Positions 30,001 to 31,321 of a stretch of DNA of 64,000 nucleotides are shown here, piece by piece. The DNA lies in assembly GCF_056746865.1 (NCBI RefSeq), contig NZ_CM163382.1; one strand, given 5' to 3'. Within the stretch, counting starts at the first letter, position 1, and the number at the start of each line of letters is the position of its first letter. The position numbers were made by a program.

Positions 30001-31321
30001 AGCAACCTACCCGGTGCTTGCGCCAAGACTATCTGAATTAAAGGAGCTCGATGGCCGTTCGCTAATGCTCCACGCAGGAGGTGATAATCATGATGACCAT
30101 CCTGAACCTCTAGGTGGCGGTGGTGCAAGAATTGCCTGTGGTATCATCCCATAATCAATCAGGTAAGGGATATCCTCCCTTACCCTTAATCTTCCCTGGC
30201 TGCATGTGCATATCTTTCAGTTACTGTGAGATACCTGTATTACGGTGTCTTTTTAGCTCACAGAAATATCAGACAGCCCGTTTCAGTGTTTTATTACCTT
30301 AATCTTTTTACGGCATTCTTCAGCTCTTGCGCATGCTATTTTTTCACCTGTTTCATAACATTGCTGGCAGCCTAATCCAAATTTCATCGCCATATCATAA
30401 CCTTCCCGAAAACCTCGGAACCACGCGTTACGAAGGTATTCATCATATTCCCCGCAGTCAATAATAACCATTTTATTTTCATGGGATTTTCCGGTATTCT
30501 CACTCATTTTCGATACCTCAATGCTTACAACAGAAAAGTATACTTTTACGAAGTTCGCCTTTGCAGGACTATATAAAGTTATCACTGGATGCAAGAGCCG
30601 GAAATCCTGTATATCAGGATCAACTTTGTAATTCAATAACATATTATCCAGTGAAAAAGTAAGTATATTTAAGCTGGGGAAGGAGAAGGGGGACTTGATT
30701 TGATATTTTCATCAATAATATTATTTTTCCTCCTCCATTATTCATTCAGACCTGGTTCCGGGCGTAATTCCGATTTCTCTGTTGAAGCGATGCATTTATA
30801 TTTAAATATTCACCTGTCATTGAATTTTATTTGAAATAGGAGAAAATCTCCTCCTGTACTACAGATAACCCGGAATGTTCCTCGAAAGAAAATTCTGGCG
30901 CAGAATTCACGCCCGGTTCTGTTCAACATCATGCAGGATAACGATACCGAAACGTTAAACTCTGGCAATTCTCGTGTTATACACAGGCAGGAGTGATTAC
31001 TACGGTAAGAATTGCTGAAAAGGGGAGAACACTGAAGGCCTTATTCGCGAAGAATAAAGGAGACATTTCATGTAAATTATTATCAGAGATAACCTTCTCC
31101 AGGCGCTTTTGTTCGCTTCCTGAATTGCTACCTGATACATATTTACGGGATGCCAGCCTGGTGACTATAACTCCGAAAAGACCGATTATTGTATTGCGTG
31201 CATCCGGCATGTTTACAATGTACGCTGGTATCTAACGGAGTCTGACACAGATGCACGCAGGTGTATATTTTAACGTAATTATCCGGAAAGAACAGTATAT
31301 TTTAATGCGGGAGTTGCATGA

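Follow-up and report, generated by a model that had tools for sequence, protein, structure and literature searches.

The 64,000-nucleotide stretch of contig NZ_CM163382.1 (RefSeq assembly GCF_056746865.1) analysed here, referred to as the window, carries a small gene of 74 codons plus a stop (30283..30507, minus strand; RefSeq hypothetical protein WP_024210520.1) beside sodC (29630..30154, plus strand; WP_000823671.1), which encodes a periplasmic Cu,Zn superoxide dismutase. The small gene and this horizontally spread sodC form a 1.1-kb mobile cassette located in insertion sequence (IS)-rich islands of a minority of Escherichia coli. The comparison of its sequences indicates that the small gene is, with high confidence, a translated gene starting at 30507, and its product constitutes an orphan family, uncharacterised and very narrowly distributed. 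As to its role, a tentative preference is given here to a cytoplasmic accessory, dependent on thiols or metal, of the oxidative-stress genes with which it travels.

The ATG of the small gene occupies positions 30507-30505 and the complement of its TGA positions 30285-30283, and the encoded protein, of 8.6 kDa, reads MSENTGKSHENKMVIIDCGEYDEYLRNAWFRGFREGYDMAMKFGLGCQQCYETGEKIACARAEECRKKIKVIKH. The sequence-only reading had proposed a 74-residue open reading frame (ORF) beside sodC, with a good ribosome-binding site and a CxxC...C...C pattern, and these elements were located as described, on the minus strand. A Shine-Dalgarno sequence, GAGGT (30515..30519, minus strand), is found 8 nt before the ATG and is the same in the copy from Klebsiella; five of the 74 residues are cysteines, four of them arranged as C47-x2-C50-x8-C59-x5-C65 and the fifth at position 18. 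The small gene is convergent with sodC, the two stop codons being 128 bp apart; hence it lies downstream of sodC, as had been said, but without co-transcription. Between both stops there is a G+C-rich hairpin (30161..30185), kept in Klebsiella and called as a terminator-like site on each strand, which looks like a bidirectional terminator for the two genes. On the other side, a candidate sigma-70 promoter of the small gene (30608..30636, minus strand) was assigned by consensus match only, with a -35 TTGAAT, a 17-nt spacer and a -10 TATACA that reads TATAAA in Klebsiella; the automatic scan missed it because the final base of the -10 is not T. A second candidate, TTGCAT-15 nt-TATAGT, is located at 30594..30568. 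Moreover, a perfect 14-bp palindrome, AAAAGTATACTTTT, is placed at 30534..30547, 27 nt 5' of the start codon. It has one exact match in the window and is unchanged in Klebsiella, though the upstream DNA around it is only 72% identical, and it was not found upstream of the most distant homologue. It is possibly an operator or an element of the 5' untranslated region of the small gene. The proposal that it might be a shared operator was dropped, since its near-matches in the window number 5 against 2.9 expected, which is not above chance; one copy with three mismatches lies over the sodC start codon (29633-29646).

The identical small protein is encoded on at least 1000 public contigs, always labelled 'hypothetical' or 'uncharacterized', and many gene callers report instead a 119-residue version starting at an ATG at 30642 (clusters P0001, P0002, P0133 and P0134). 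The additional segment (30508-30642, minus strand) is broken by stop codons both in Klebsiella and in the distant homologue. Therefore the 119-residue reading was rejected, the 74-residue start is supported, and the 119-residue database entries are over-extended.

The status of the small gene derives from its conservation and not from the length of its ORF, which is within chance, dozens of similar mechanical ORFs being present in the window. Protein searches, including a phmmer search over 1.84 billion representatives, detected three lineages only: the E. coli cluster, a Klebsiella pneumoniae protein (P0004) with 81% identity to that of E. coli, and a 75-residue protein from a Logan assembly (P0010) with 63% identity across the aligned core and 54% overall. 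A repetitive 382-residue protein (P0011; phmmer E=7e-5, 27% identity) was judged spurious. No further homologue was obtained in a profile search with the alignment of the three sequences, nor was any found in two scans of GTDB contigs (one genome per species) or in a scan of viral contigs, and tblastn against phage records returned only noise (E of at least 0.7). A metagenome scan with the degenerate pattern CQQC[YF]ETGEK recovered 8 loci, each belonging to the E. coli type. In all three lineages the frame is open. Between E. coli and Klebsiella, the ratio of nonsynonymous to synonymous substitution rates (dN/dS) was 0.22 for the small gene and 0.09 for sodC, with synonymous rates (dS) of 0.43 and 0.45, respectively; between E. 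coli and P0010, the proportion of synonymous differences (pS) was 0.91, a saturated value, for the small gene and 0.66 for sodC, and that of nonsynonymous differences (pN) was 0.26 and 0.18. When the observed substitutions were re-placed at random sites having the same base, so few amino acid changes were obtained in 0.19% of the trials for the Klebsiella pair (P=0.0019) and in none of 20,000 for the P0010 pair, and a premature stop appeared in 78% and 95% of the random sets, respectively. Third codon positions hold 15 of the 30 substitutions in the first pair and 43 of the 84 in the second. The ORF is 86% identical between E. coli and Klebsiella, versus 72-77% for the non-coding flanks, and at the distant locus only the coding regions could be aligned (sodC, 72%; codons 20-62 of the small gene, 74%). 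Within E. coli, all amino acid polymorphisms fall in residues 8-20 and none in residues 21-74. No RNA family of Rfam matches the region. The homologues show purifying selection on the small gene. The sequence-only reading had named lack of conservation outside this strain, together with no sign of translation, as the outcome that would speak against it; the gene was found to be kept beyond the strain, under the constraint just described.

The E. coli and Klebsiella sequences share only the region 29566..30673 (1108 bp), as given by the blastn alignment of Klebsiella L002 232-1338 with 30673-29566 of the window (85.4% over 1109 columns), and right beyond both ends identity falls to 42-46%, about random. 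The conserved unit is thus a two-gene cassette in which each gene has its own upstream region, and it comprises the sodC promoter region, sodC, the terminator and the small gene with the DNA upstream of it. The assignment of sodC is given by Pfam Sod_Cu (E=6e-32) and by the NCBIfam SodC equivalog (218 bits, cut-off 165). Among 5426 complete E. coli genomes the sodC allele is present in 125 and the small gene in 124, at 149 places each; carriers of the cassette represent about 2% of these genomes, and many of them come from chickens or other poultry. The cassette is also present in one Klebsiella pneumoniae isolate. The neighbour on the sodC side is a solute-binding/permease ATP-binding cassette (ABC) operon in this window, FecCD/Peripla_BP_2 ABC genes in Klebsiella, dptF in E. 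coli AHS8C65RI, IS2 and sitA in E. coli SMS-3-5, and IncF plasmid backbone in E. albertii and E. coli plasmids, and the two genes stay paired across the varying E. coli neighbours. Their G+C content is 39% for the small gene and 48% for sodC. Some E. coli genomes hold two or three modules of sodC plus the small gene, and module carriers are strongly enriched for poultry isolates.

In the distant lineage, that of P0010, the order is sodC (minus), an IS3 remnant, the small gene (plus) and a katG-type catalase-peroxidase gene (plus) (L006 and L007), the first and third of these being 750 bp apart and in a changed relative orientation. The small gene lies beside sodC in each of the three lineages, rearranged in this one and joined by a second gene for the removal of reactive oxygen species. 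This locus (L006 208-4348, and L007) is a compact oxidative-stress cluster on an enterobacterial contig; the katG-type product has 723 residues, its DNA being about 75% identical to Citrobacter and E. coli katG, and an 83-residue ORF with no Pfam match follows directly on the opposite strand. In the window, a decayed remnant of an IS3-family transposase gene (about 31433-32063; 30700-32300 generally) is located directly upstream of the small gene, and all the E. coli contexts examined (L001, L016, L033) contain such a remnant. As an IS3 remnant is also just upstream of the small gene in L006, the association with IS3-type elements is possibly an old one. IS insertions have themselves hit or damaged the small gene repeatedly.

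The small protein is predicted to be soluble and cytoplasmic: its grand average of hydropathy is -0.75, the Kyte-Doolittle value stays at or below 0.2 in every 15-residue window, and neither a signal peptide nor a membrane segment was detected. Since SodC is periplasmic, any tie between both proteins would be indirect, and a role as periplasmic SodC chaperone was rejected for the same reason. Every homologue has at least four cysteines, at positions 18, 47, 50, 59 and 65 in E. coli, 47, 50, 59 and 65 in Klebsiella, and 14, 47, 50 and 65 in P0010; C47, C50, C65 and the C-terminal histidine are invariant, and C18 is polymorphic in E. coli, often being a tyrosine. The CxxC motif occurs in the context FGL[GNS]CQQC. 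AlphaFold2 predicts an antiparallel two-helix hairpin, with helices spanning residues 18-42 and 47-73 and a predicted local distance difference test (pLDDT) score of 87-96 for residues 21-60, preceded by a variable N-terminal tail (residues 1-17) that is predicted to be disordered. The helices would pack through small-xxx-small motifs, with G32, G36 and A40 facing G54, A58 and A62. In the model the CxxC is located at the turn of the hairpin, at the N-terminal end of helix 2. On helical wheels, W29, G32, G36 and A40 fall on one face of helix 1, and C47, C50, G54, A58, A62, C65, I69 and I72 on one face of helix 2, with C59 off the face of the invariant cysteines. The latter are carried by a single long helix, up to ~27 Å apart, with about 18 residues between C47/C50 and C65; in the model, therefore, they could not build a single site within the monomer. 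On the outer faces, R31, R34, E35, Q49, E52, T53, K56 and A60 are invariant, which suggests a partner or an oligomer.

The statement of the sequence-only reading that the protein matches no recognised family was upheld by the searches: hmmscan against Pfam-A gave no family at E<=1, NCBIfam and PADLOC gave no match, the best PHROGs match had E=0.19, and the sequence profile search of the PDB was empty. Neither sequence nor fold matched solved structures above noise, no DNA-binding fold or family was detected, and the literature, searched by accession, sequence motif and island, yielded no paper on the small gene. The protein shows likenesses to several known systems, of which HMA, CsoR/CstR, Wbl, zinc-hook and CHCH are families to which it does not belong. 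Like the HMA proteins Atx1 and CopZ, it is small, soluble and cytoplasmic, with a CxxC at a loop-to-helix N-terminus and a conceivable copper-supply link to a cuproenzyme; however, it has no PF00403 match, its motif context differs from the HMA GMxCxxC, and the HMA fold is a ferredoxin-like beta-alpha-beta-beta-alpha-beta arrangement instead of the predicted two-helix hairpin. CsoR, RcnR, FrmR and CstR are small all-alpha proteins in which a cysteine at the N-terminal end of a long helix and a Cys/His close to its C-terminal end, contributed by two antiparallel subunits, form an inter-subunit site that senses metal or persulfide, a geometry that is the one proposed below for C47/C50 with C65' and H74' (primes denote the other chain). 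The small protein departs from them in having no PF02583 match at E<=1, two predicted helices versus three and no evidence of DNA binding; its linked-dimer model was of low confidence. The WhiB-like (Wbl) proteins are also helical, of about 75-120 residues, with four cysteines including a CxxC, and, as [4Fe-4S] proteins, they act as redox or nitric oxide sensors that bind a partner, a sigma factor, and not DNA. Their spacing, C-xn-C-x2-C-x5-C, differs from the C-x2-C-x8-C-x5-C found here, where the third cysteine is not conserved; there is no PF02467 match, and the Wbl family occurs only in Actinobacteria and in phages of this group. As in the Rad50 zinc hook, a CxxC at the apex of a helical hairpin could pair with that of a second copy around one zinc ion, but the hook belongs to the very long coiled coil of an ABC ATPase with no sequence relation to the small protein, and the analogy leaves the invariant C65 and the terminal histidine unexplained. 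The twin-Cx9C CHCH proteins, such as Cox17, are cysteine-rich helical hairpins of ~70 residues tied to copper enzymes. They have, however, one Cx9C per helix, two inter-helix disulfides and an oxidising compartment, whereas here all conserved cysteines are in helix 2 of a presumably cytoplasmic protein, helix 1 has none, and helix 2 shows a Cx8C whose second cysteine is not conserved. Finally, Rop/Rom is a two-helix hairpin of ~63 residues, encoded on mobile DNA and forming a dimeric four-helix bundle, but there is no sequence similarity, no significant structural match past the generic hairpin and no known RNA target here. Three further candidates were rejected: a ZAS anti-sigma factor (H-x3-C-x2-C), because the residue four positions before C47 is the invariant F43 and not a histidine; a DksA/TraR C4 zinc finger (CxxC-x17-CxxC), because there is one CxxC only and no Pfam match; and a ribbon-helix-helix protein, since the predicted helices have about double the fitting length and no profile matches.

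The explanation favoured here is that of an accessory acting in the cytoplasm. The hairpin would bind another copy of itself or a different protein, and C47 and C50 of one chain, together with C65 and the C-terminal histidine of the other, would build a thiol or metal (Zn, Cu(I) or Fe-S) site between the subunits; in an antiparallel dimer C47/C50 could come to lie close to C65' and H74'. Oxidants or the supply of metal would be sensed at this site, and the protein, without being a direct chaperone of the periplasmic SodC, would tune the co-travelling oxidative-stress genes as an accessory sensor or adaptor. Taken as a whole chain, this proposal is put forward tentatively, its probability remaining clearly on the lower side. 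A broader version, distinctly less likely, is that the small protein represents a new family of very small sensors, mobile and of the thiol- or metal-cluster kind, built as hairpins with an inter-subunit CxxC/C/His site, that are co-transferred with periplasmic superoxide dismutase (SOD) and catalase-peroxidase genes and couple their expression or metallation to the oxidant or metal status of the new host.

Several results weigh against the accessory role. No biochemical activity of the small protein is backed by homology or by experiment. C59 is replaced by a tyrosine in P0010, and the invariant cysteines, lying on the face of small-residue packing, could perhaps be just buried structural residues. 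An AlphaFold2 run on a linker-joined tandem dimer was of low confidence (pLDDT 55; predicted template modelling score, pTM, 0.45), so that this model does not support self-association. The claim of the sequence-only reading that the gene might be functionally tied to sodC stood as far as gene order is concerned (adjacency in three lineages, the 1.1-kb cassette, 124 versus 125 genomes), but not in the nearest other SodC lineages (66-82% identity), where tblastn detected no homologue of the small gene within 4 kb. These lineages show that SodC does not need the small gene; their loci are plasmids, lambdoid prophage tail regions, sites linked to IS21 or to genes for fimbriae, and a plasmid of Salmonella. 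In a neighbour-joining tree they fall between the two lineages having it, a placement that implies repeated loss or two independent linkages. In some E. coli chromosomes (6 of the 40 rows sampled; L016 3001-4258) the small gene is disrupted by IS5 after codon 70, the insertion replacing the last four codons and removing the invariant histidine while sodC stays intact. In a few IncF plasmids of E. coli and E. albertii an IS2-type end at codon 44 truncates it (L004/L005, about 5000-5050), sodC being identical on these plasmids. Moreover, as two of the three lineages have one ancestral arrangement, the synteny amounts to approximately two independent observations.

Almost as likely as the accessory role is that the small gene is real but with a function unrelated to sodC or to oxidative stress, its adjacency being due only to tight linkage on a small IS-flanked fragment; in a variant of this explanation a mobile element may have left it behind as a regulatory or addiction-type gene. 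The pair is indeed always found amid IS remnants (IS3 upstream; IS2, IS5 and IS66 nearby), E. coli and Klebsiella have in common a single ancestral 1.1-kb fragment, and the difference in G+C content between both genes, the close SodC relatives devoid of the small gene and the tolerance of its disruption by IS elements with sodC intact are all in line with a passenger. Mere linkage accounts less well for the distant locus, where all non-coding DNA has diverged, an IS3 remnant lies in between and the orientation has changed, yet the two genes are still 750 bp apart, beside katG. The equal dS of sodC and the small gene shows in addition a long co-descent, and PHROGs, PADLOC, phage records and viral contigs gave no match pointing to a mobile-element function. 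Less probable than either of these is a partner-binding adaptor made of helices, or a small autoregulator, devoid of metal and redox chemistry, whose cysteines would be buried packing residues of an Ala/Gly/Cys hairpin and which would bind protein or nucleic acid, possibly its own upstream palindrome, via the invariant Arg/Lys/Gln surface. The location of C47, C50 and C65 on the face of G54, A58 and A62, opposite G32, G36 and A40, the replaceable character of C59 and C18, the invariant outer-face residues and the conservation of the perfect palindrome in Klebsiella all fit such a protein. The persistence of at least four cysteines per homologue despite their shifting positions would, however, be surprising if they served packing alone, the searches detected no DNA-binding fold or family, and the palindrome is absent upstream of the distant homologue and its near-matches in the window remain at chance level.

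Improbable, and plausible only on account of motif position and context, is a CopZ-like cytoplasmic Cu(I) carrier whose CxxC would pass Cu(I) to P1B-type exporters such as CopA and so feed the copper route of the periplasmic Cu,Zn-SOD. In Salmonella, according to a review that cites Osman et al. 2013 (PMC3852070), copper reaches SodCII via cytoplasmic P1B ATPases and CueP, from a source in the cytoplasm that is termed unidentified. This route, the constant adjacency to sodC and the position of the CxxC at a loop-to-helix N-terminus, as in the Atx1 and CopZ metal sites, would agree with a carrier. They are opposed by the absence of an HMA-domain match, by a predicted all-alpha instead of ferredoxin-like fold, by the katG neighbour in L006, whose product is a haem and not a copper enzyme, by the fact that other sodC lineages and the chromosomal sodC manage without the small gene, and by the lack of cop, cue or cus genes nearby. 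Least likely of all, and very improbable, is that there is no protein and that a fortuitous frame has been conserved through an RNA or DNA regulatory element of sodC, antisense or at its 3' end. The convergence with sodC and the common terminator would suit an element of that kind, the coding call itself derives from comparing sequences, and conservation in Klebsiella extends to the non-coding flanks, at 72-77%. Nevertheless, the excess of substitutions at third positions and the dN/dS of 0.22, the frame being broken in 78-95% of the random re-placements, the higher identity of the ORF than of its flanks, the alignment of the distant lineage in the coding core only and the absence of an Rfam match speak against it.

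If the small protein responded to redox state or metal as a partner of the mobile sodC (and katG), bacterial oxidative-stress control would gain a new small-protein scaffold, and the protein could help to explain how acquired periplasmic SODs are made to work in new hosts. Such acquired SODs are recognised virulence and fitness factors in Salmonella and pathogenic E. coli. Since many poultry-associated E. coli have the cassette, any phenotype would matter for the fitness of avian (APEC) and extra-intestinal (ExPEC) pathogenic E. coli, and the sensor family, should it exist, would act in them as a portable 'plug-in' regulator of acquired defence against reactive oxygen species. If the gene is only a hitchhiker, the value of the analysis is one of annotation: a real gene, starting at 30507 and not at the 119-residue start, that deserves a family or domain of unknown function (DUF) entry.

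Elsewhere in the window, the same IS-rich island encodes a 1291-residue serine-protease autotransporter (16254-20129, minus strand; Peptidase_S6, E=6e-92) with an extended signal peptide, adjoined by an AbgT-family transporter gene (20441-22000); plasmid copies of the sodC module are also near an autotransporter gene. A YebF-family gene at about 23051-23350 (L001 8552-8851) is a RefSeq pseudogene with an internal stop. Past the IS3 remnant, the region 32749-41182 contains a gene for a LysR-type regulator and, divergent from it, an operon (ankyrin-repeat, DUF2877, fdrA, DUF1116, hypothetical and carbamate kinase genes) that resembles the ylbE/fdrA/arcC-type cluster of K-12 and is probably unrelated to the small gene.

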